Virus record (IMG/VR): IMGVR_UViG_3300025835_000036
Location: 1-25,953 of that record
Strand: one strand, 5' to 3'
From: a virus
Taxonomy: Duplodnaviria; Caudoviricetes
DNA: 25,953 nucleotides
The translations under genes were made by a program, and so were the position numbers. This document shows, in pieces, positions 1 to 16,407 of this stretch (its first letter is position 1; each line of letters opens with the position of its first letter). The notes beneath the pieces were generated by a model. It did no database searches, was not told the DNA's origin, and saw only the letters and a list, made by a program, of their open reading frames with translations.

Positions 1-194
1 GGTTCTATTTCACAAAATGCTAAGTTTTCATATTGCTCACCAAATACCATCTTGGCAGCAAGAGCAAAACCACCTATTCCACTAAATAAATCTATATGTG
101 TAAAATGGTCGGCAACATAACTCGCAACTGTACCCGACACTAAATTATCTTCGGCGTTTTTATTTTTAAGAGTCTTTTTTATTTGTTCTTTCAT
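1..194 (-). CDS. DNA (cytosine-5) methyltransferase, N-terminal part (runs off the window)
   Basis: Not in the ORF track. Manual translation from ATG at 194: MKEQIKKTLKNKNAEDNLVSGTVASYVADHFTHIDLFSGIGGFALAAKMVFGEQYENLAFCEIE. DLFSGIGG is C5-MTase motif I (FxGxGG); FCEIE fits motif II. Confidence 0.85.
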   Translation of the reverse strand, partial: MKEQIKKTLKNKNAEDNLVSGTVASYVADHFTHIDLFSGIGGFALAAKMVFGEQYENLAFCEIE

Positions 195-240
195 ACTTTT
201 CTTTCTATGCCGTGCGGGTAAGTTGCCACAGCCGTTATAA
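115..240 (+). mobile_element. attC-like recombination hairpin (site A)
   Basis: ACATAAC-TC-GCAACT[G]TACCCG[A]CAC (115-140) pairs with GTG-CGGGTA-AGTTGC-CACAGCC-GTTATAA (212-240). Two unpaired bases 6 bp apart and TAAC...GTTA cores, as in integron attC sites. Confidence 0.7.
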
Positions 241-384
241 TTTAATTGCTAATATTTTTACAAAACTTGGCTTTATCGGATATCGCTTAAAATTTTTTTC
301 CCTATTGGGGTTGTGAATACAATGCCTTGAGCTTGTTTCTTTTGTATTATAAATAAATCCACACCATTTACATTTACGTTTCAT
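235..384 (-). CDS. small hypothetical protein (49 aa, CxxC), cassette-borne
   Basis: Manual translation MKRKCKWCGFIYNTKETSSRHCIHNPNREKNFKRYPIKPSFVKILAIKL*. Its stop TAA is the TAA|C core of site A. Flanked by a perfect 16-bp inverted repeat (234-249 / 394-409). Confidence 0.55.
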   Translation of the reverse strand: MKRKCKWCGFIYNTKETSSRHCIHNPNREKNFKRYPIKPSFVKILAIKL

Positions 385-397
385 TTTATTCTCGCAA

Positions 398-616
398 TTA
401 AATTATAACTAAGCAATTAATTTGACCGATTAGCTCGGTCTGGTTATTAAATTTAGTTTTCAATTCAAGTTCTTTCATTTTATCTTCAATCACTTTATCA
501 ATGTCCGCAAGTTTCACAATAACTCCGACATCAAGCGGACACTTACATGTCGTCCCTGCAATTATTTCTAAATTTTCTGTGGCTTTTATCCCACCACACT
601 TATTACAAGCTTTCAT
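398..616 (-). CDS. hypothetical protein with CxxC...CxC (possible Zn-binding)
   Basis: ORF track, 72 aa; AAGGAG RBS upstream (623-628). Starts inside the loop of site E. Confidence 0.6.
   Translation of the reverse strand: MKACNKCGGIKATENLEIIAGTTCKCPLDVGVIVKLADIDKVIEDKMKELELKTKFNNQTELIGQINCLVII
403..430 (+). mobile_element. attC-like half site (site D; partner arm not found)
   Basis: TTATAAC-TAAGCAA-T-T-AATTTG-A-CCGA has the same spacing as the other arms. Its core is perfectly complementary to the core at 234-249. Confidence 0.4.
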
Positions 617-659
617 ATATTTCTCCTTTTATTTTCGTGCCGTTTATGCAACATTATAA
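517..659 (+). mobile_element. attC-like recombination hairpin, slightly degenerate (site E)
   Basis: CAATAAC-TCCGACA-T[C]AAGCGG[A]CAC (517-542) is a classical attC R''-L'' arm. It pairs with GTGCCGTTTATG (637-648); the distal core reads ATTATAA instead of GTTATAA (653-659). Confidence 0.55.
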
Positions 660-1112
660 ATTTTTCCTTTTAAATAATATATTTCTCATTGTCATCCCCG
701 TAATTTTATATCCTATATTAATCAAATAATTGGGTATGGCTTTTTGAGACGGCAAGATACATTCAGCCAATATCCAGTTGGGATTAAAAGTCATTGTTTT
801 TAATATCTCTAAATCAATTCCGTCAACATCGATATCAAGCAAATCATAATCTTTATAATCTGCGATGCTTATTGTTAACGCTTGTATAAACTTATCTCTT
901 GGTCTAAACAACTTAAACCGTCTAATCTTTCTAATATCAATACAAATTCCACTCCATCCGTTTAGATATAATAGGTAAGTGTTGCTCCCCTTGATCGGTG
1001 TGGAACAACCTATGTCTAAATATTTACCGATGTTTGGCAGTTGTGCTAACATCATTTTATCCTCCCCCTCGCTGCTGCCAAACAGATTTATAAATTTAAT
1101 TATTTTTTTCAT
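654..1112 (-). CDS. FkbM-family SAM-dependent methyltransferase-like protein
   Basis: YLDIGCSTPIKGSNT..LY..GWSGICID and DLLDIDVDGIDLEILK are typical FkbM motifs; the protein is short (152 aa). Confidence 0.7.
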   Translation of the reverse strand: MKKIIKFINLFGSSEGEDKMMLAQLPNIGKYLDIGCSTPIKGSNTYLLYLNGWSGICIDIRKIRRFKLFRPRDKFIQALTISIADYKDYDLLDIDVDGIDLEILKTMTFNPNWILAECILPSQKAIPNYLINIGYKITGMTMRNILFKRKNL

Positions 1113-1284
1113 ATAATATTTTACTAATATATTCTCTTATAATTTGTTTTGCAACAACTCTAAATAACAAACTAACGAAATCTAAGTCTGTTTTATATTT
1201 AAGCTTTTTGATGTTCTCACAATTTTTAACACTCGCCAAGTATTCATCAAACTTAGCGGTTAAACCTTCAGCAATTTTTTGCAT
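1096..1284 (-). CDS. hypothetical protein
   Basis: 62-aa ORF packed between neighbours in the leftward operon. Confidence 0.55.
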   Translation of the reverse strand: MQKIAEGLTAKFDEYLASVKNCENIKKLKYKTDLDFVSLLFRVVAKQIIREYISKILYEKNN

Positions 1285-1286
1285 AA

Positions 1287-1649
1287 CTATTTTTCATTTA
1301 AATATCTATAAATAGATTGCCAACCATTTAGTTGGCTCTCTGTAGTCTTTATATATACGATCAGAGATTTATAGTCCGCTTCAGCTTTGTCTTGATTTAA
1401 CTTTTCGTTAAAGCAAACTCCTTTAGCGACCTTCTCAAGTATAGTCGCTGGCAGTCCCTTAATCTCAATGCCTTCAAATTCACTTATTGTTTCATTGCGA
1501 ATTTTTAGAATAGTTATCGCAAGTTCTTTGTCATAGAGGGCTATGGCTTCTGCTTTTTTACCGCTTCTTTCATTCAAAAACTTTTTAGCTTTTTCAAGCT
1601 CATTGATTTTTTTTTCTATTTCTGATGAGACGGTTATTATGTCCATCAT
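1287..1649 (-). CDS. helical phage protein next to the annealase (UvsY-like mediator is possible)
   Basis: Likely start at MMDII (1649), overlapping the annealase stop, with a GGGG RBS. Coiled-coil-like sequence ending LNGWQSIYRY. Confidence 0.6.
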   Translation of the reverse strand: MMDIITVSSEIEKKINELEKAKKFLNERSGKKAEAIALYDKELAITILKIRNETISEFEGIEIKGLPATILEKVAKGVCFNEKLNQDKAEADYKSLIVYIKTTESQLNGWQSIYRYLNEK

Positions 1650-2383
1650 TCCCCCTTTTCGTTTTCTTTTTTGATTTCCAACTTCCTGTTTTCCTTGATT
1701 GCTTTTGCAATCCTTTTTTCGTTGGGTTTTAGCTGTGACCACCAATGTTGTAATAACTCCGTTTCCTTTATTCTGCTTACTTCTTCTTTAAAATCTCTTT
1801 GTTGCGACCTTTCTTTGGGCGCAGGAATTTCCTCCTGCTTTAATGTCTCTATTTTTTTTGGACCCTGTTCATCTGCCTGTAACATTTCATCATCGCCGTA
1901 AACACCGCTCAAATCTTCCGGCGCCATCATTCTTAAAACGGATTCCTCCGCACACTTCTTAATCATTGTTTGCTTAAATCTATTCCAGAAAGCATTGGGT
2001 GTACCGTCGCTTTTGCGTTGTACATATTCTTCAAAAGGAAGTTCATCATAATATTTTCCTCGATCTTCAGTATCAATTTCACAAATACCGTATAGGTCAT
2101 CGCTCCTTTTTTCCACCCATCTTTTGTAAGATTTAATTTTGCAATTCCTTTGCGCAATCACTCGCATTCCATCAATACCAGCTTGTATGGTATAAGAAGC
2201 AACCCATTTCCCGAAATTATCTTTTGATTTTCTTTCAACTAAATGTATCTGTCTTAACATTGGGTCGAGCTTTTTCTTTTCACAAACGGCAGCAAAAAAA
2301 TCTACTTGTGCCTGCGGACAGCTTGCGGGAATTATTTTGTTTAATTCCAGTAATTTTATTTGATCTTCTGTTAATAACTTCAT
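1646..2383 (-). CDS. single-strand annealing protein, Redbeta/RecT family
   Basis: FFAAVCEKKKLDPMLRQIHLV, IQAGIDGMRVIAQR and W...QTMIKKCAEESVLRMMAPEDLSGVYGDDEM match the Bet/RecT pattern. Confidence 0.85.
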   Translation of the reverse strand: MKLLTEDQIKLLELNKIIPASCPQAQVDFFAAVCEKKKLDPMLRQIHLVERKSKDNFGKWVASYTIQAGIDGMRVIAQRNCKIKSYKRWVEKRSDDLYGICEIDTEDRGKYYDELPFEEYVQRKSDGTPNAFWNRFKQTMIKKCAEESVLRMMAPEDLSGVYGDDEMLQADEQGPKKIETLKQEEIPAPKERSQQRDFKEEVSRIKETELLQHWWSQLKPNEKRIAKAIKENRKLEIKKENEKGE

Positions 2384-2407
2384 TTCATCTCCTTTCTTTT
2401 ATATTAT

Positions 2408-3103
2408 TTATCGACTTGTCAATATTTTTTCAACATTAAATTTAACGCCGGGGATTGCTAATGTTCCTTTTGTAGCCTGTGCAACTTTGTTTAAGGCTGA
2501 TATATTTGCTATTAAGTATTCTCTTGGAATTAAGTTAATATCGATAACCTCTGCACTCCATTGGTCTCTATAACTAACTCCTCTTGGTGTTTCAATCTGC
2601 GGCGCAACCACCGGGGCTATTGTCGGGATAACGGTCTCTTTTTGCATTTGAAGCTCTTCTGCTTTTTCTGTTTTCCCGGATGCTTCCGCTCTCGCTATCT
2701 TTTCATCAAGTATCTTTTTCTGCCTTGCAGCTTCTGCATCGGCAAGTTTTTGTAAACGTGCTTGTTCTTCCCTTGCCTTGCGTTCCTGCACATTTGTATA
2801 GGCAATCATTAAACTTTTAATCTTAGATTCAGCTTTTTCTAATAATTCTAACGGAGTCTTAAACAGCTCCATAACTGTTTTTTTTGCAATATCGATGGGT
2901 TTTGTTATTCCTTTGCGCTGTGAATCAAGTTCTTTATATCTTGATTTTACCTCCTGTAATATGGTTGATGCAGTTTCATAATCTGATTGATTAGAAATTA
3001 CCAATTCTGCTTTTTGGCAAAGTGCCGGAACATCACTTGTTTTTTTTTGTTCCTTTACGGTGTCAATATTTACTAAAATGTTACTCGTTTTAATGTTACT
3101 CAT
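2408..3103 (-). CDS. coiled-coil protein of the phage recombination module
   Basis: Long coiled coil with C-terminal IPREYL...IPGVKF; lies between the exonuclease and the annealase. Confidence 0.7.
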   Translation of the reverse strand: MSNIKTSNILVNIDTVKEQKKTSDVPALCQKAELVISNQSDYETASTILQEVKSRYKELDSQRKGITKPIDIAKKTVMELFKTPLELLEKAESKIKSLMIAYTNVQERKAREEQARLQKLADAEAARQKKILDEKIARAEASGKTEKAEELQMQKETVIPTIAPVVAPQIETPRGVSYRDQWSAEVIDINLIPREYLIANISALNKVAQATKGTLAIPGVKFNVEKILTSR

Positions 3104-3687
3104 TTTACACTCCGCTTATAATTTGTGATTGTTAATGCACTTAAAAATATATTTTTATCATTTATATTTTTGCACTCTTCAACTTTATAGTTATCCTTGT
3201 TTAGATATACAAGATATCTTTTTTTAATTTGATCTTTTTTTGTTTTATCTTGATTATAAAGAAGCTCATAACCCGCTGTCTGGATTGAGCTTACTTTTTG
3301 TTTAGTCCCTGATTTTATATCAACAAGGGCTAAATCATCCCCTAAGCAACCAACACGGTCAATCCTACCTGCAAATTTATACAATTTATGGAAAAGCATA
3401 ATCTCAATATATGTCGGTATAAAATCATAATCATTACGAAATTTAACCCAGCCATTTAAGTAACCACTCAATGTTGGGTGAAGTTCTGCAATGTCTAATG
3501 TCCCTTTGTCATAAAGCTCGGTTGTCTTATGTACTTTGGTACCAAACAAAGCTTTTGCTTTTAGCACTTCTTTATCAACCCATTCAAGGTTGATAAGCCC
3601 TGCTTCTTGTAAGACTTGTGTGACGGAAGGGATTTCAGTTCCGTCTAAAAAATATTTATGGTCTTTTTCGGTAAAATTTTCTTTCAT
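3100..3687 (-). CDS. PD-(D/E)XK exonuclease (Cas4/YqaJ-like phage recombination nuclease)
   Basis: PSVTQVL, GTKVH, AGRIDRV, VDIKSG and QTAGY motifs. Confidence 0.85.
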   Translation of the reverse strand: MKENFTEKDHKYFLDGTEIPSVTQVLQEAGLINLEWVDKEVLKAKALFGTKVHKTTELYDKGTLDIAELHPTLSGYLNGWVKFRNDYDFIPTYIEIMLFHKLYKFAGRIDRVGCLGDDLALVDIKSGTKQKVSSIQTAGYELLYNQDKTKKDQIKKRYLVYLNKDNYKVEECKNINDKNIFLSALTITNYKRSVK

Positions 3688-3765
3688 TTTATTTTTTTTG
3701 GAGGTTTGTGTTTTTTACACTTAAAAATTTCTCTATCTAATTTATTTATAAGATTATCATAAATC

Positions 3766-3969
3766 TTAATTTTCCTTAATCTCTATTTCTTTCGGTTCAG
3801 GAACAGGAACTTTTTTCAGGAAATTCTGATAAAAATCACAAAGGTCTTTTTCAGCACTCTCGAAACTTTTGCCGCAGCAGTAGTGTTTAATCCCTATGTC
3901 AGAGACGCCGCATACCCAAAAAGGATTGTCGTATTGCGGTTGAAATGAATATGTTATTTTAATTTTCAT
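3766..3969 (-). CDS. hypothetical protein
   Basis: 67-aa ORF overlapping its upstream neighbour by 4 nt (ATGA). Confidence 0.6.
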   Translation of the reverse strand: MKIKITYSFQPQYDNPFWVCGVSDIGIKHYCCGKSFESAEKDLCDFYQNFLKKVPVPEPKEIEIKEN

Positions 3970-4379
3970 TTTTTCCCCTTTGCATTTTCAATATACCAGG
4001 CATTTAAAAGGTGCTCTGGATCGAGCAATATTTGATTGGTTTTTAATAACAGGTTCTCTGCTTTATCCAAATCTCCTTCTCTTTCTAAGAGAAAAACCTT
4101 GAATAAGGCAATTTCGTCCTTCATAAGGACGCTTACATCTCGGAGTCTTCGGGATTTGTGTTCTAACTCATCGATCTCCCATTCTCTTCCATTGTTTCCA
4201 CTATAAAAATCTGTGAATAAGGCAATCTCATCTTCCAGGAGCACATTTGCATCCCAGAGGTTTTTGACCCTATATTGTATTTCACTGATTTTCCATTCCC
4301 CTGTATTGCTGCTGGATTTCAGAAGCGCAAACAAAACAACCCCGAGAAAAACACCAATGAAAATTCCTAAAATTAACAT
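3966..4379 (-). CDS. membrane-anchored hypothetical protein with an internal duplication
   Basis: N-terminal hydrophobic helix; two copies of (G/R)EWxIxE...V L(L/M)xDEIALF; AGGAGG RBS. Confidence 0.65.
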   Translation of the reverse strand: MLILGIFIGVFLGVVLFALLKSSSNTGEWKISEIQYRVKNLWDANVLLEDEIALFTDFYSGNNGREWEIDELEHKSRRLRDVSVLMKDEIALFKVFLLEREGDLDKAENLLLKTNQILLDPEHLLNAWYIENAKGKK

Positions 4380-4381
4380 AA

Positions 4382-4573
4382 TTATCCTCCTGAGATTCTA
4401 TTCTCTTTTTTTGTTATGAAGATATTGATTTTATTTGGCAGTGTCGTTTGCGCCGTATCTGGACGCAAGGCATCCCAAATCTGCTGTGGGTGTTTAACTC
4501 GAAAAACACCCGCCAAACTTTTTTGTTTAATTCCAAGTTTTTTTAGTCTTGGGTTTAGATTATAATCGTTCAT
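4382..4573 (-). CDS. Cro-like helix-turn-helix regulator
   Basis: 63 aa; LKKLGIKQKSLAGVF...QQIWDALR HTH pattern; first gene of the leftward unit. Confidence 0.6.
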   Translation of the reverse strand: MNDYNLNPRLKKLGIKQKSLAGVFRVKHPQQIWDALRPDTAQTTLPNKINIFITKKENRISGG

Positions 4574-4601
4574 TTTATCTCCCTATTTTTTTCTTATATT
4601 T

Positions 4602-4681
4602 AACTTAATAAAAAAAATATCATTTGTCAAGATAAAAATAAAAATATTTTTGTTTGTTTTTTGTTTTGTTTTTATTATATT
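4602..4681. promoter_or_regulatory. divergent promoter region
   Basis: Minus strand: TTGACA(4630-4625)-17 nt-TAAGTT. Plus strand: TATATT at 4676-4681 behind a T-rich tract. Sits at the point where gene orientation diverges. Confidence 0.55.
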
Positions 4682-4710
4682 GCCAAGAATTATAATAACC
4701 AGGAAAGACA

Positions 4711-4975
4711 AAATAACGCAGTTGCGGTTAAGCGGTTTGCGAACACAAACAATAACTAATAAAAGGAAATGAAAATATGAACACACCAACATTAGAAGAA
4801 GCCAGAAAATTAATTAACGAATATGGCGTTGATGAAGATGGGTACATAATGAAAAATATTGAGCAAGATATGGATGGAGATAATAGTATAACATTAAGCC
4901 GATATTTTAGAGAATGTATTAACCTTGTTGTAAATGTAGGGATGCAAGCAAATCCGCTTGAACCGCTTGTTATGT
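4711..4975 (-). mobile_element. attC-like recombination hairpin with a ~200-nt coding loop (site B)
   Basis: Minus strand reads ACATAAC-AAGCG-GTT[C]AAGCGG[A]TTTGC ... GCAAACCGCTTAACCGC-AACTGC-GTTATTT, a near-textbook attC arm pair (arms 4711-4740 and 4948-4975). Confidence 0.8.
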
Positions 4976-5124
4976 TGCGCTCTTTAGCTAAACAACTTAA
5001 TAAGTGGGCTGATGAAAGTAAATCAGGCGGATGGAGTACACATCAAGTTAAACCAATGCAAGAAAAAGCAGCAGAGATATATCAATTATTAGATAAAGTA
5101 GAAAGAATCGAAGCGTCAACATAA
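4777..5124 (+). CDS. hypothetical protein, cassette-borne
   Basis: 115 aa. Starts in the site B loop, is translated through the arm (ANPLEPLVML), and stops at TAA|C (5122-5125). Confidence 0.75.
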   Translation: MNTPTLEEARKLINEYGVDEDGYIMKNIEQDMDGDNSITLSRYFRECINLVVNVGMQANPLEPLVMLRSLAKQLNKWADESKSGGWSTHQVKPMQEKAAEIYQLLDKVERIEAST

Positions 5125-5305
5125 CGATTTTGTGGCTAAGCTGCTGCCCAGCACAACAATGATTTATAAAAGTAATTAACTAAAAATATTTAGAACACTT
5201 AATTAGGAGAATACAATGAACAAGAAACTAAAAACGGGACAACAGACCCAAGAATCCAAAATAGCCGAATGCGAAAAAGCAGCCAGCTTGAGGCACGGGT
5301 TATAT
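5119..5305 (-). mobile_element. attC-like recombination hairpin (site C)
   Basis: Minus strand reads ATATAAC-CCGTGCC-T[C]AAGCTG[G]CTGC ... GCAGCAGCTTAGCCAC-AAAATC-GTTATGT (arms 5119-5147 and 5279-5305). Confidence 0.75.
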
Positions 5306-5617
5306 TTTGATGATCTTAAAAAATACTTCCCTAAAAGTTTTAAGTTAGTTATTGATAGTTTCCAGATTGATGATAGTCTTTTAGAAATACGTTACCATTC
5401 AAACGATTGGTTAAGACACGATTTATTTTATTTCTTTGATGCACAAAATATTTATATAGATATATTCACCGATTTTTATATGAATCCAGCAACATTTTGT
5501 TATTCAATCAGGCGAAGGAATAAAAACAGAATTACATCTGGCAATATTATATCAAGACCCAAAGCAGAACAGCTTGCATTTGTAAAGGCTTTTGAAATAC
5601 TTGAACAAAAAATATAA
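5216..5617 (+). CDS. hypothetical protein, cassette-borne
   Basis: 133 aa, AGGAG RBS in the site C loop; stops at TAA|C (5615-5618). Confidence 0.75.
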   Translation: MNKKLKTGQQTQESKIAECEKAASLRHGLYFDDLKKYFPKSFKLVIDSFQIDDSLLEIRYHSNDWLRHDLFYFFDAQNIYIDIFTDFYMNPATFCYSIRRRNKNRITSGNIISRPKAEQLAFVKAFEILEQKI

Positions 5618-5640
5618 CTACTTATTAAGCTGAACTAATT

Positions 5641-5794
5641 TGATTTTTAAATTAATTATTATATATTTGTAATAGGAATTTGAAGCGTAAAAATGAAACC
5701 TAAAACAAGAAAAAAAACAGCCCCTGAGACACAGCCTTTGGCAAACCTATTTGCGCTTTGGATTCCTCTGTATTGACGGGGCTTTTTATTTTGA
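5641..5794 (+). promoter_or_regulatory. promoter plus structured 5' leader, copy 1
   Basis: TATATTTG at 5662-5669. Helices 5675-5687/5754-5766 and 5719-5724/5778-5783, followed by a T tract. uORF 5693-5776. Paralogous to 8095-8241. Confidence 0.55.
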
Positions 5795-5803
5795 GATGTA
5801 CTA

Positions 5804-8086
5804 ATGGCGAACAAAAATCAAGAAAATTATATCGAGTTTCTTAAAACAAAAAAAAGAACTGTAGGAGCTGTTGGTAAGGCTGTTGATCTGAAAGATATAA
5901 ATTCAGTACTCTTTGATTTTCAAAAAGACATAGTCTATTGGGCTACTAAAATTGGTAGATGCGCAATATTCGCTGATACCGGATTGGGGAAAAGTTTTAT
6001 GCAGTTGGAATGGGGACGGTTAATGGGTAATAGCTGTTTGATATTTGCGCCATTATCTGTTGGCAGGCAGACCATAAGAGAAGCAAAGAAAATAAATATT
6101 GCTGTTAAATATATCAGAGATAAAAAAGAAATTACTAAAAATGGAATTTTTATAACTAACTATGAAAATATAGATAAATTCCAGAATATTAAAATAGATA
6201 GTATAGTTTTAGATGAAAGTTCGATACTAAAAGCTATTGACGGGACTACGAGAAAAAAGTTAATTGATTATTTCACAGGCATAAAATATAAATTATGCTG
6301 TACTGCGACCCCATCCCCAAACGATTACACTGAATTAGGAAATCACGCTGAGTTTTTAAATATATGCTCAACAGCTGAAATGCTATCAACTTATTTTGTG
6401 AATGCAAACAAGGAAAGTGAAAGAGTCACCGGTTCGGGTGAAATAATAAGAATCAAACACTCAAATAAAAATGGTACACAGTGGAGATTAAGGCATAACG
6501 CTCATAAAGATTATTTTAGGTGGCTATCATCTTGGGCAATGGCTATAAGGAAGCCATCTGATTTAGGGTACAAAGACGACGGATATGTTTTACCTGAATT
6601 AAACATCATTCCATTGATAGTTAGGTCTGATTATGTTCCTACCGATGAGCTATTCTTTTCGGGGTTAAAGGGGTTGAAAGACCGAGCAGCGATTAGAGAT
6701 TCAAGTGCAATCGGAAAAATTGAAAAGATAAAAGAACTAACAAATAATAAAAATCAATGGGTTATATGGTGTGGATTGGGGAAAGAATCATCATTAGCAA
6801 AACAGAATATTGACGGATCTATTGAAGTTAAGGGAAATGATGATGTGGAATATAAATCTAAAAGTTTTGAAGACTTCCAGGATAATAAAATCAGGGTGCT
6901 TATTACAAAGGGTAAAATAGGTGGGTTTGGAATGAACTTTCAACAATGTAGCAATATAATATTCTTTGGACTAAATGATAGCTGGGAAATGTTCTATCAA
7001 TGTGTGCGGAGATGTTATCGGTTTGGACAGAAAAAAGAAGTAAATGTTTATATAATAATTTCTGAATTAGAATTACAAATTTATGAGAACATAAAAAGGA
7101 AGGGTGAGATGGCGGAAAGAATGATGAACGGACTAATCGAAGAAGTCAAGGGGTATGAGCTTGAAAAACTTGGTAAAAACAAAAATCTAAAAATAGATTC
7201 TAATTATCAAGAGGACACAATCACGACCGATAAATATACTGCTATGCTCGGGGATTCCTGCAAAAGGTTACCCGAAATTAAATCAAAGTCAATTCACCTA
7301 AGCATATTTTCACCCCCCTTTGCAGACCTTTATACATATTCAGCAACAGACCGGGACTTAGGAAACTCAAAAGATTGGGATGAGTTTTTTAAACATTATA
7401 AATATATAGTCAAAGAATTATTAAGGGTTACTATCGATGGTAGAATTAGTTGTGTTCATACATCTGACATTCCGGCAATGCAGGGCAAAGATGGATATAT
7501 TGGTATAAGAAATTTTCCTGGCGCAGTAATTAAATGTCACGAAGAAAATGGATGGATATTTCACGGCAGGGCAATAGTAACAAAAAACCCACAAGCACAA
7601 GCGATAAGGACACATTCAAAGGCTTTATTATTTGCTCAACTTAGGAGAGATTCAAGTGATTCACGTCCTGCATTATTAGACCATATACTTATTTTCAAAA
7701 AACCCGGCAAGCCTGAAATTCCTGTTAATCCAGTTAAAAATGGTGAAGTCGATAATGAGAAATGGATAAATTGGGCAGGTGGTATCTGGACTGGAATAAG
7801 CGAATCAGATACTTTACAATATACAACGGCAAGAGACAAGGACGACGAAAAACATATTTGCCCCTTGCAATTAGGGACTATTGAGAGATGCATAAAATTA
7901 TATTCAAACCCCGGAGAAACTATATTGACTCCATTTATGGGAATTGGTAGTGAAGCATATCAGGCTATTAAGTTTGGTAGAAAAGCAATCGGCATTGAAT
8001 TAAAACCGTCTTATTTTAGAATAGCAAAACAGAACCTTGCAAATATTGAAAACGAGCAAAATCAAGAAACATTATTTTCTATTTAG
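5804..8086 (+). CDS. SF2 (SNF2-like) helicase fused to a beta-class N4/N6 DNA methyltransferase
   Basis: ADTGLGKS, LDESS, TATP and QCVRRCYRFGQ helicase motifs. C-terminal FSPPF (motif IV, typical of m4C enzymes) precedes PFMGIGS (motif I). Confidence 0.9.
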   Translation: MANKNQENYIEFLKTKKRTVGAVGKAVDLKDINSVLFDFQKDIVYWATKIGRCAIFADTGLGKSFMQLEWGRLMGNSCLIFAPLSVGRQTIREAKKINIAVKYIRDKKEITKNGIFITNYENIDKFQNIKIDSIVLDESSILKAIDGTTRKKLIDYFTGIKYKLCCTATPSPNDYTELGNHAEFLNICSTAEMLSTYFVNANKESERVTGSGEIIRIKHSNKNGTQWRLRHNAHKDYFRWLSSWAMAIRKPSDLGYKDDGYVLPELNIIPLIVRSDYVPTDELFFSGLKGLKDRAAIRDSSAIGKIEKIKELTNNKNQWVIWCGLGKESSLAKQNIDGSIEVKGNDDVEYKSKSFEDFQDNKIRVLITKGKIGGFGMNFQQCSNIIFFGLNDSWEMFYQCVRRCYRFGQKKEVNVYIIISELELQIYENIKRKGEMAERMMNGLIEEVKGYELEKLGKNKNLKIDSNYQEDTITTDKYTAMLGDSCKRLPEIKSKSIHLSIFSPPFADLYTYSATDRDLGNSKDWDEFFKHYKYIVKELLRVTIDGRISCVHTSDIPAMQGKDGYIGIRNFPGAVIKCHEENGWIFHGRAIVTKNPQAQAIRTHSKALLFAQLRRDSSDSRPALLDHILIFKKPGKPEIPVNPVKNGEVDNEKWINWAGGIWTGISESDTLQYTTARDKDDEKHICPLQLGTIERCIKLYSNPGETILTPFMGIGSEAYQAIKFGRKAIGIELKPSYFRIAKQNLANIENEQNQETLFSI

Positions 8087-8094
8087 TCCAGTTT

Positions 8095-8241
8095 TGACTT
8101 TTAAGTAAAATATTATATATTTGTAATAGAAGCTCGGGAGAACTTATGAAACCAAAATCAGCCCTTTTAAATTGCAGCCAATTTGAGCATCCTTGCTCTG
8201 CCTGGGCTTCTCTGCATTTATCTGGGCTGAATTATTTTGAG
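8095..8241 (+). promoter_or_regulatory. promoter plus structured 5' leader, copy 2
   Basis: TTGACT..TATATTTG. Helices 8128-8138/8201-8211, CAGCCC/GGGCTG and TGCAG/CTGCA. uORF 8146-8247. Confidence 0.55.
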
Positions 8242-8250
8242 GATTAAATA

Positions 8251-8946
8251 ATGGCTATCTATCGGCAAATCCAAACAACCTACTGGCAGGATAAATTTAT
8301 TTTAACACTAACGCCTGAAGAAAAGTTCTTTTATATCTATTTGCTTACAAACAGTAAAACTAAACAATGCGGAATTTATGAACTTCCAATAAAAATAATT
8401 GAAGTAGAAACCGGCTATAATCGGGAGACGGTTCTTAAATTATTAAACAGATTTATAGACCATAAAAAAATAATGTATGATTGGGAAAACGAAGAAATTG
8501 CTTTAAAAAACTGGTTGAAACATAATAATTATGAAAATAATCCTAAAATACAGAAATGTGTGGAAAAAGAGCTAACAAATGTTAAAAACGAAACATTTTT
8601 TGAGTTTATGGGTTTTCCAGATACCCCTTGTATAGGGTATCACAATAAAAACAAAAATAATAATAATAATAAAAATAAAGAAAATAATAATCATATAGAT
8701 ATACATAAACTCTGGATAAGCACATTCGGAAGAAATCCTAAACTACCAGAAGTAGAGGTGACTGAAGATTTAATAACTAAATTTGGGTACAATAAAGTTT
8801 ACCAAATATTTAAACAAGCTACGCTGGATGGATTTAATAAAATAAAAACTTTAGTTAATTCCTTAGATGAACAAGGAAATATTAAGCCAAAACCAAAAAT
8901 AGAATGGAACAAAAACACTGGGGTGGAAACAATTGACCACATCTAA
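8251..8946 (+). CDS. phage replication initiator (replisome organiser / DnaD-like)
   Basis: MAIYRQIQTTYWQD...LTPEEKFFYIYLLTN...CGIY winged-helix N-terminus, N/K-rich linker, directly upstream of DnaB. Confidence 0.8.
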   Translation: MAIYRQIQTTYWQDKFILTLTPEEKFFYIYLLTNSKTKQCGIYELPIKIIEVETGYNRETVLKLLNRFIDHKKIMYDWENEEIALKNWLKHNNYENNPKIQKCVEKELTNVKNETFFEFMGFPDTPCIGYHNKNKNNNNNKNKENNNHIDIHKLWISTFGRNPKLPEVEVTEDLITKFGYNKVYQIFKQATLDGFNKIKTLVNSLDEQGNIKPKPKIEWNKNTGVETIDHI

Positions 8947-15888: not shown

Positions 15889-16407
15889 ATGAAAAAACAA
15901 ATAAAAAAGAAAGTTGGCAGACCAAAAACTTTAATAAATGGAAACAATTCCGGAAATCAAACCAAAAATCAAGCCAGAAATCAAACCAAAAATCAAACCA
16001 GAAATCAAACCAAAAACTTAGGTGGTAGACCTCGGATAGTTTTTTCCGAATCTCAATGGAAAGAATTTGAAAGCCTTTGTGCTTTACAATGTACAAAAAT
16101 AGAAATTACAGAATGGTTTAATGTTGACGACAAAACTTTAGAAAATCTTTTAAAAAAACGCTATAAAAGAGGTTTTTCCGAAGTTTTTGCACAAAAAAGG
16201 ACTAAGGGATTAGTATCATTAAGAAGACGGCAATTTCAATTGGCAGAGACTAATCCAGCATTAGCCATCTTTTTGGGTAAGAACTATTTAAGCCAGAGAG
16301 ATAAAACAGAGATAGAGCATTCTGGTAGTCTTGAAGAGCGTATTCGCAATATGACCGAAGAGGATAGGCTTAAACGTATTGCGATATTAAAGCAAAAGAT
16401 TAAATGA
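15889..16407 (+). CDS. terminase small subunit (HTH type)
   Basis: GRP motifs, HTH (CTKIEITEWFNVDDKTL), LRRRQFQLA...LAIFLGKNYLSQRDK.EIEHSG; directly before TerL. Confidence 0.85.
   Translation: MKKQIKKKVGRPKTLINGNNSGNQTKNQARNQTKNQTRNQTKNLGGRPRIVFSESQWKEFESLCALQCTKIEITEWFNVDDKTLENLLKKRYKRGFSEVFAQKRTKGLVSLRRRQFQLAETNPALAIFLGKNYLSQRDKTEIEHSGSLEERIRNMTEEDRLKRIAILKQKIK
15955..16014 (+). repeat. 12-bp in-frame tandem repeat x5 in TerS
   Basis: AATCAARCCARA x5 encoding NQTK-NQAR-NQTK-NQTR-NQTK. Confidence 0.9.

Follow-up and report, generated by a model that had tools for sequence, protein, structure and literature searches.

The accepted view is that integron cassettes serve bacteria and have a single polarity, dictated by the attC hairpin, and the cited part of one study states that promoter-facing cassettes have never been observed (PMC5027507). 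Complete integrons are mentioned in Ignavibacteriae in the text cited here (PMC9024848). The portions of Qi et al. 2023 that we cite report 17 phage clusters of attC sites lacking integrases (CALINs), with five of six tested sites recombined by IntI1 and cassettes that frequently carry methyltransferases (PMC9892861). Here, we examined a phage contig, IMG/VR record IMGVR_UViG_3300025835_000036 (Caudoviricetes; linear, 25,953 nt, about 40% complete), whose whole length is the window referred to below, and in it a locus at 4711–5635 that holds two attC sites (B and C), two gene cassettes and an attI-like docking site. With a probability of roughly 0.78, we read this locus as an integron slot without an integrase, filled with inverted cassettes that are likely moved by the integron integrase (IntI) of a presumed Ignavibacteriales host. 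The slot itself is real, and its activity is likely. Phage attC clusters have already been published; for the inverted layout, no publication was found in literature searches that covered few subscription journals and no bioRxiv supplements. New here are the host family with a canonical IntI, the match of a full-length site and of an attI to that host, a latent start codon, and natural alleles.

The locus resembles the chromosomal integrons of Ignavibacteria in its AAC/GTT stem with two unpaired bases 6 bp apart, its attI, its single gene per cassette, the complementarity of cores across cassettes and a loss across AA|C, and site C of the phage is a host attC. It differs from them in that the phage contig lacks intI, the genes occupy the bottom strand, directed toward attI, the start codons fall within the attC loop, one arm is translated, and the cassette bodies are phage genes. 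With the phage CALINs of Qi et al. it shares attC sites in a phage genome without an integrase, and the combination of two attC sites with no integrase in the contig makes it a CALIN by definition rather than a complete integron, in which intI is adjacent. The arrays of Qi et al. are described as typical of those in bacteria, the sites being divergent in a single case; systematic inversion, starts in the loop, an attI downstream on the phage transcript and natural alleles are not described in the cited portions of that paper (PMC9892861). The host arrays found here have intI co-directional with the cassettes, as in the ‘reverse’ integrons of Treponema. According to the cited sections on Treponema, however, the reversal concerns the direction of intI, whereas the phage inversion is that of the gene relative to its attC, which is absent in the hosts (PMC4909258, PMC4889954). 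The features of the locus are as follows.

4711..4975, plus strand (the classical bottom strand): attC site B, 257 nt from AAC to GTT, with unpaired G and T and a predicted cut at 4716|4717.
5119..5305, plus strand: attC site C, 179 nt, host-type along its entire length, with unpaired G and C.
5611..5635, minus strand: attI-like site, CAGCTTAA-TAAGTA-G|TT, with its crossover at 5618|5617; missing from the sequence-only reading made earlier.
4717..5124, plus strand: cassette 1, 408 nt, cores complementary over 9 nt, lost exactly or replaced in metagenome run X3.
5125..5617, plus strand: cassette 2, 493 nt, putative boundaries, cores complementary over 10 nt, adjoining attI and ending at its crossover.
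4777..5124, plus strand: open reading frame (ORF) 1, 115 aa, made of about 55 loop codons, the right arm and a phage domain (GGWSTHQV), its stop codon being the TAA of the crossover.
5216..5617, plus strand: ORF 2, 133 aa, whose first 28 codons are the bottom strand of a host attC and whose remainder belongs to a phage protein family.

The sequence-only reading had taken B and C for imperfect inverted repeats of attC type, and we recovered the same arms, cores, coordinates and motifs. A detector of attC geometry, which was written after sites B, C and A (an attC-like site described below) were known and does not select on unpaired bases, returned exactly three sites in the window and none in each of 10 shuffles. 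TAAC and GTTA cores fitting RYYYAAC / GTTRRRY were present at all three, with 12–13 of 13 stem pairs, and a scan of arm pairing along the window ranked B, C and the third site (117–238) highest, their arm duplexes reaching −19.9, −16.5 and −15.6 kcal/mol, respectively, against −14.7 kcal/mol for the best of 20 shuffles. An ungapped repeat finder did not place the B or C arms among its 25 longest pairs. Across 11 phage sites, at least two Watson-Crick pair types occurred in 11 of 13 stem columns, and the extrahelical bases were G in nine and T in nine. On its minus strand, site B reads ACATAAC-AAGCG-GTT[C]AAGCGG[A], as had been proposed, and its spacing (AAC, 8 nt, unpaired C, 6 nt, unpaired A) is that of the attC aadA7 oligo in the cited part of a supplement (PMC9892861). 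The R'-side spacer, at 9 nt, is longer than in aadA7 and is a trait of the host family, present in 40 of 42 host sites.

Complementarity between the cores flanking a cassette body extends over 9 nt for one cassette and 10 nt for the other, compared with 5 and 5 inside each hairpin, in agreement with the sequence-only reading, and host arrays behaved likewise as a control (7–12 nt across bodies, n = 22, versus mostly 4–5 within sites). Because this complementarity is symmetric, it cannot alone tell which strand is cut, and the cut strand was assigned from the unpaired bases and a deletion allele. In the cited text, the bottom strand is recognized by an extrahelical G and T, 6–8 nt apart, in the arm opposite AAC (PMC2727003). 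By this rule, as given in the parts cited, the plus strand of B and C is the bottom strand, the one that IntI cuts at AA|C (PMC5027507, PMC2727003). The earlier claim of an unpaired G and T on the coding strand stands for B and fails for C, whose unpaired bases are G and C. Both sites (257 and 179 nt) lie beyond the 57–141 bp described for attC in the cited source (PMC5371416). This range is broader in the Ignavibacteria group, because the IntI-adjacent host sites measure 179–232 nt. Host sites are mostly 179–184 nt long (28 of 42 at 179–182 nt) with the same spacer and unpaired bases (G/T in 41 of 42), which makes site C a normal-sized host attC; the ‘oversized loop’ ascribed to both sites thus applies only to B, enlarged to 257 nt, and not to C, whose 179 nt is the modal host length.

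Of 301 genomes from the Ignavibacteriales, the order of genome G001, 177 had chromosomal attC matches to site C, the best being 84% identical over 187 nt, loop included (E = 4e-54). In G001, an IntI above the TIGR02249 cut-off lies on the same contig as the sites, an efflux-like gene block separating intI from the array. We also searched with a 14-base left-arm pattern, which yielded 119 viral and 120 genome loci, both partial samples of their collections. Rosettibacter primus (Ignavibacteriales) gave the sole full site among the 120 genome loci, and none of the 119 viral loci had one. On the R. primus contig lie an IntI scoring 440 bits (cut-off 265) and three detector sites roughly next to one another, and the right arm of site B matches the R. 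primus site over 17 nt. The loop of site B, though its arms are host-type, had no match in the host genomes. A search of the host group for IntI, which the sequence-only reading had proposed, found the enzyme beside the matching attC family, with 30 of 151 genomes of the class having one. Moreover, a phage-like contig of G209 has late genes in common with the window at 33–49%, and G209 has an IntI. We infer that Ignavibacteriales host the phage and that their IntI is likely the enzyme that moves the cassettes. The phage likely borrows the shuffling enzyme of its host, because it has host-type attI and attC sites and a gene that is present, missing or replaced within one sample.

The attI-like site was scored with a profile of seven host sequences downstream of intI, which have in common the pattern CAG-x-x-TAA, six bases, G|TT. 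Position 5618 on the minus strand was the best of 51,866 positions, with 16.6 bits (next 13.0), while the best background score in eight further loci was 13.1 bits and host sequences in a leave-one-out run scored 8.7–28.7 bits. In the host locus L374, a stretch complementary over 10 nt to the core of the first attC confirms the attI position. In the phage, the attI crossover coincides with the stop codon of ORF 2. A search for a cassette promoter (Pc) upstream of attI gave one weak sigma-70-like match on the minus strand (5684–5655); such matches were at chance level (4 found, 6.8 expected), and the cassette genes are unreadable from the minus-strand Pc side. Among the host loci, L358 (G001:C1:2367-19422), L374 and L392 have intI co-directional with the cassettes, attC sites of 179–232 nt, a 9-nt spacer and a common attI motif. 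An attI-like sequence of 13.1 bits was also seen near 9365 of L450 (G188:C1), in a prophage-like stretch without detected attC sites, which may be an empty slot or chance.

We compared gene polarity at host and viral sites, leaving out sites less than 250 nt from a locus end; most of the viral sites counted were short and of other attC families. A gene on the same strand stopping exactly at TAA|C was found at none of 44 host sites versus 18 of 38 viral sites, and an opposite-strand gene stopping near the right core at 29 of 44 host sites versus 5 of 38 viral sites. Host genes are thus classical and viral genes opposite, and the inversion is a trait of the phages. We had initially expected hosts to carry inverted genes too, which these counts ruled out. 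In a separate tally of 42 host sites, 27 were canonical, five counted as both and nine stayed unassigned; the one scored inverted (L384) sits near a contig end. In the window, the classical layout, in which a top-strand gene precedes its attC, is absent: both genes are on the bottom strand, the strand with the extrahelical bases, and neither cassette body has a minus-strand ORF of at least 45 aa. The integron reading made from the sequence, with its inverted polarity, starts inside the loop and boundaries of cassette 1, holds, and one natural allele is short by precisely the 408 nt that had been predicted.

The three contigs of run X3 (aquifer) that bear on mobility share the left flank and rejoin at site C. 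The first is the window form (depth 18.6). The second has lost 408 nt, the length of 4717–5124 (depth 9.83), and the six ambiguous letters at its joint, ATAACG, contain AA|C, as expected from the prediction that genes would be lost exactly at TAA|C. In the third, 484 different letters follow 4717 (depth 9.03). Unitig breaks at 4718, 5115 and 5121, together with these depths, are consistent with three alleles. Precise loss or replacement at the core was thus found for cassette 1 in one of the eight runs examined, as assembled contigs of that run, which is not marked as a possible source of the record but may come from the same sampling campaign; the seven other runs had no joint at the cassette ends. 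The observed natural deletion spans AA|C, and no deletion from G|TT to G|TT was seen. The simplest history would be a three-cassette ancestor that lost one or both distal cassettes. The phage slot combines host-type attI and attC with reversed polarity, and varies within a natural population.

Both genes appear to be composites of attC and phage sequence. Residues 30–133 of ORF 2 match protein clusters that are 90–100% viral, and a homolog of its body exists without the arms. The domain of ORF 1 occurs as a stand-alone gene without sites in distant phages, and in the 21 ORF 1-domain loci with inspected genes it is mostly a stand-alone gene of 50–70 aa. Together, these observations suggest that the cassette bodies are phage genes brought under attC control. 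Neither ORF had a family in Pfam or PHROG, an Atlas search with ORF 1 gave only leads below 0.9, and residues 1–40 of ORF 2 as a query recovered no other bodies. In the 301 host genomes, searched without a positive control, cassette 1 DNA gave just four short weak matches and the ORF 2 alignment none. Host cassettes inserted backwards were considered and rejected as the source: such insertion cannot alter the direction of a gene relative to its attC, and the bodies are phage proteins.

Site C suggests where a start codon in the loop could come from. At the position of the ORF 2 start, 6 of 31 host sites have an ATG whose frame stays open as far as the core, and five of these six encode a leader resembling that of ORF 2; in the phage copy, AGGAG precedes the ATG. 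A loop start was present in 8 of 11 phage sites, in all three frames relative to GTT. The idea that G|TT swaps always preserve the frame was rejected, the frames being 0, 2 and 1 at B, C and A. Site C shows how the beginning of a protein can be provided by an attC loop, a point of relevance to the question of cassette origin.

Related phage loci extend this picture. The C-terminal half of ORF 1 is joined to four other, unrelated N-termini among nine other proteins, the junction lying at the translated arm, and a distant tenth relative adds one further N-terminus. The ORF 1 domain was present in 18 viral loci and 46 from metagenomes; of these, sites were found only in the contig of L001, the only fused relative with DNA sequence, and in the window's own record. 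A 17-nt right-arm pattern returned 20 loci in viral contigs, mostly by chance; of the 18 checked, one was the L001 contig and one a short site of classical size. None of 21 loci with the helicase-methylase, a gene that lies outside the array in the window, was a relative with an empty slot. L043 is a record of 3,134 nt whose terminal repeat measures 21 nt; it is made of three such cassettes with cores complementary across the joint. One of them, of 2.3 kb, encodes a 74% relative of the helicase-methylase, and the record may be an excised multi-cassette circle or an assembly loop. In a second phage, L442, four host-type sites carry bottom-strand genes and the array ends at an attI-like site (sites at 1267–2523, array end near 3541, oriented to the pattern). 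Two of the L442 cassettes have the same arms and body start, yet unrelated loops and N-termini. Long runs of 47–117 nt attC with bottom-strand genes were seen in many unrelated phages (L414, L417, L419-L422, L433-L435, L437, L438), so the inverted layout is not confined to long-loop sites.

How the slot might work can be outlined from established integron chemistry. IntI would cut the folded bottom strand at AA|C, cassette circles would enter at attI, and attC × attC recombination would excise them. Because attI lies downstream on the phage transcript, host cassettes of the classical kind would be inserted in antisense and stay unexpressed, and only inverted cassettes would be readable from a phage promoter at about 4653. 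Such cassettes could have originated when phage gene fragments became attached behind a host attC with a pre-existing ATG on its bottom strand and a frame open across the arm; the stronger ribosome-binding site (AGGAG) would be an addition of the phage, and the loop of site B would subsequently have been refilled with different coding DNA. Rare top-strand cuts at R'' (PMC5027507) or attG insertion at 5'-GWT-3' (bioRxiv 10.1101/2022.09.11.507474), as presented in the sections cited, offer a possible route for joining attC arms to phage genes. Top-strand insertion flips the entire cassette but cannot change the direction of a gene relative to its own attC. A benefit might also lie in replication: with genes co-directional with it, the recombining strand would be the lagging-strand template, favoring folding and excision. 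According to the cited text, folding and recombination increase when the bottom strand is on the lagging-strand template, an arrangement that 25 of 30 chromosomal integrons avoid (PMC5371416). The inverted cassettes would be in this fast orientation if the phage genes are co-directional with replication.

If the host IntI drives the slot, an enzyme of bacterial adaptation reshuffles phage early genes, while host cassettes would stay unexpressed in the phage, and phage cassettes in the host. A bolder possibility, which we put forward tentatively and at less than even odds, is that phages run a mirror-image cassette pool on the host integrase, in which the attC hairpin is a ready translation start and loops and bodies reassort into chimeric proteins. 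Were this true, any phage gene fragment joined behind an arm would become an expressed, mobile cassette, and a birth route for cassettes would be visible, its intermediates being the host attC with a latent ATG, the phage site C and the refilled site B. The parts are short and suited to standard integron assays.

Several observations weigh against a slot worked by the host IntI. First, the mobility evidence is narrow: the deletion was found in one of eight runs, the shorter side of its joint has 24 letters (below the 30-letter threshold for a false-joint warning), and the variable slot is the one distant from attI. The predicted circles (5124-4717 and 5617-5125) and the predicted empty site joining 4716 to 5618 did not appear in the contigs of the eight runs, nor did a loss or swap of cassette 2. 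Second, folding of the whole sites gave z scores of −0.16 and −0.24 for B and −2.0 and −1.3 for C, and the minimum-energy fold of the full site C differs from a long hairpin. Third, the seven host attI sequences were chosen by eye from 14 readable loci after the phage site had been noticed, and the attI-like site of L442, top in its locus, scored 11.5 bits, within background. Fourth, eight prophage-like stretches in six host genomes had no attC sites. Finally, the identity between L001 and the window runs from the inner border of the right arm to just before TAA, with the left arm unpaired, a junction that neither IntI cut explains. The earlier prediction of changes exactly at TAA|C stands for cassette 1 in X3 but not always for the C-terminal half of ORF 1, which also swaps partners at the inner right arm; one of the outcomes that the sequence-only reading had named as refuting has thus partly occurred, and genes do not always move whole.

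The best of the alternatives, which we nonetheless consider unlikely, is that the sites were captured from hosts and now serve as mere homology, at which RecT or replication slippage deletes and swaps genes while IntI has no current role. The window does encode RecT, the left arms of B and C are 26/39 identical, and since the joint falls in the longest block common to both, the same deletion could also be a product of slippage or RecT. The L001 junction, not being at an IntI cut, fits as well, and loss of small cassettes between 83%-identical sites without an integrase is reported in the cited text (PMC5371416). Homology by itself, however, leaves unexplained 1) an intact attI at the exact end of the array, 2) the 9–10 nt core complementarity across protein-coding ends, 3) the conserved unpaired G/T and compensatory stem changes, and 4) a replacement that starts right after AAC.

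The absence of an integrase from the window, which the sequence-only reading had pointed out, was confirmed in that no PF00589 (tyrosine recombinase) match was found in the contig. A contig about 40% complete leaves room for a phage recombinase outside it, and it would be the same cassette system if such an enzyme were encoded in the unsequenced part, or if a Xer-like host enzyme acted on the sites. A cassette-bearing phage, G436, does carry a tyrosine recombinase, but this enzyme reaches 55 of the 265 bits needed for IntI, none of five cassette-bearing phage records (one of them estimated complete) has an IntI above the cut-off, and the matching host arrays and attI adjoin a canonical IntI; we therefore regard this reading as improbable. 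We give almost no credence to chance as the origin of the inverted repeats, or to assembly artefacts as that of the alleles: whole-site folding is no better than in shuffles and the joints come from the assembled contigs of a single run, but the shuffles yielded no sites, site C is tied to host attC by its E value, and the unitig breaks and depths fit three alleles.

Beyond the slot, the window encodes a terminase, a major head protein, DnaB, RecT and the helicase-methylase, and the metagenome runs that contain the stretch are from groundwater and aquifer. The array sits where the early genes diverge and where the GC skew switches sign. Two further features lie to its left.

4653..4683, plus strand: putative promoter, TTTG-N19-TATATTGC, which would drive both cassette genes.
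115..240, minus strand: attC-like site A, 118 nt, with unpaired C and T, within the leftward early genes; missing from the sequence-only reading.

We take the upstream TTTG box and its spacing to be those of a promoter. The pattern has seven matches in the window, and its geometry is shared with a repeated motif at 5639, 8093 and 14292. A TAnnTTTG −7 box is known from Flavobacterium and Bacteroides, according to the cited passages (PMC7641319).

At site A, the upstream ORF 384–235 terminates at TAA|C of the site, and a gene starting in the loop at 194 runs off the contig. The latter gene, on the minus strand, presumably encodes a cytosine methyltransferase (motif DLFSGIGG). With this truncated, probable DNA methyltransferase gene (1–194), site A may belong to a second inverted array extending past the contig end. 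Near copies of site A with different flanks were seen in runs X1 and X2, and run X1 had a joint of 237 to 5292 on opposite strands; both may reflect host or other-phage copies and were not used.

A duplicated promoter-like motif with a short leader ORF, both starting MKPK, is present at 5639–5800 and 8093–8250. These repeats flank the 760-aa helicase-methylase gene, a GC-rich inverted repeat follows each copy, and insertion between two such repeats may be how the gene arrived. Rfam had no match within 1–8300. In runs X4 and X5, contigs link 3830 to 4280 with 29 foreign letters in between, possibly a variant of the leftward early genes not related to the attC sites. A contig of run X2 skips 201 nt (448–650), with 32 foreign letters between, removing most of ORF 616–398. 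Tandem short repeats (NQTK-like) are located at about 15950–16010, within a small terminase-like ORF at 15889–16407.
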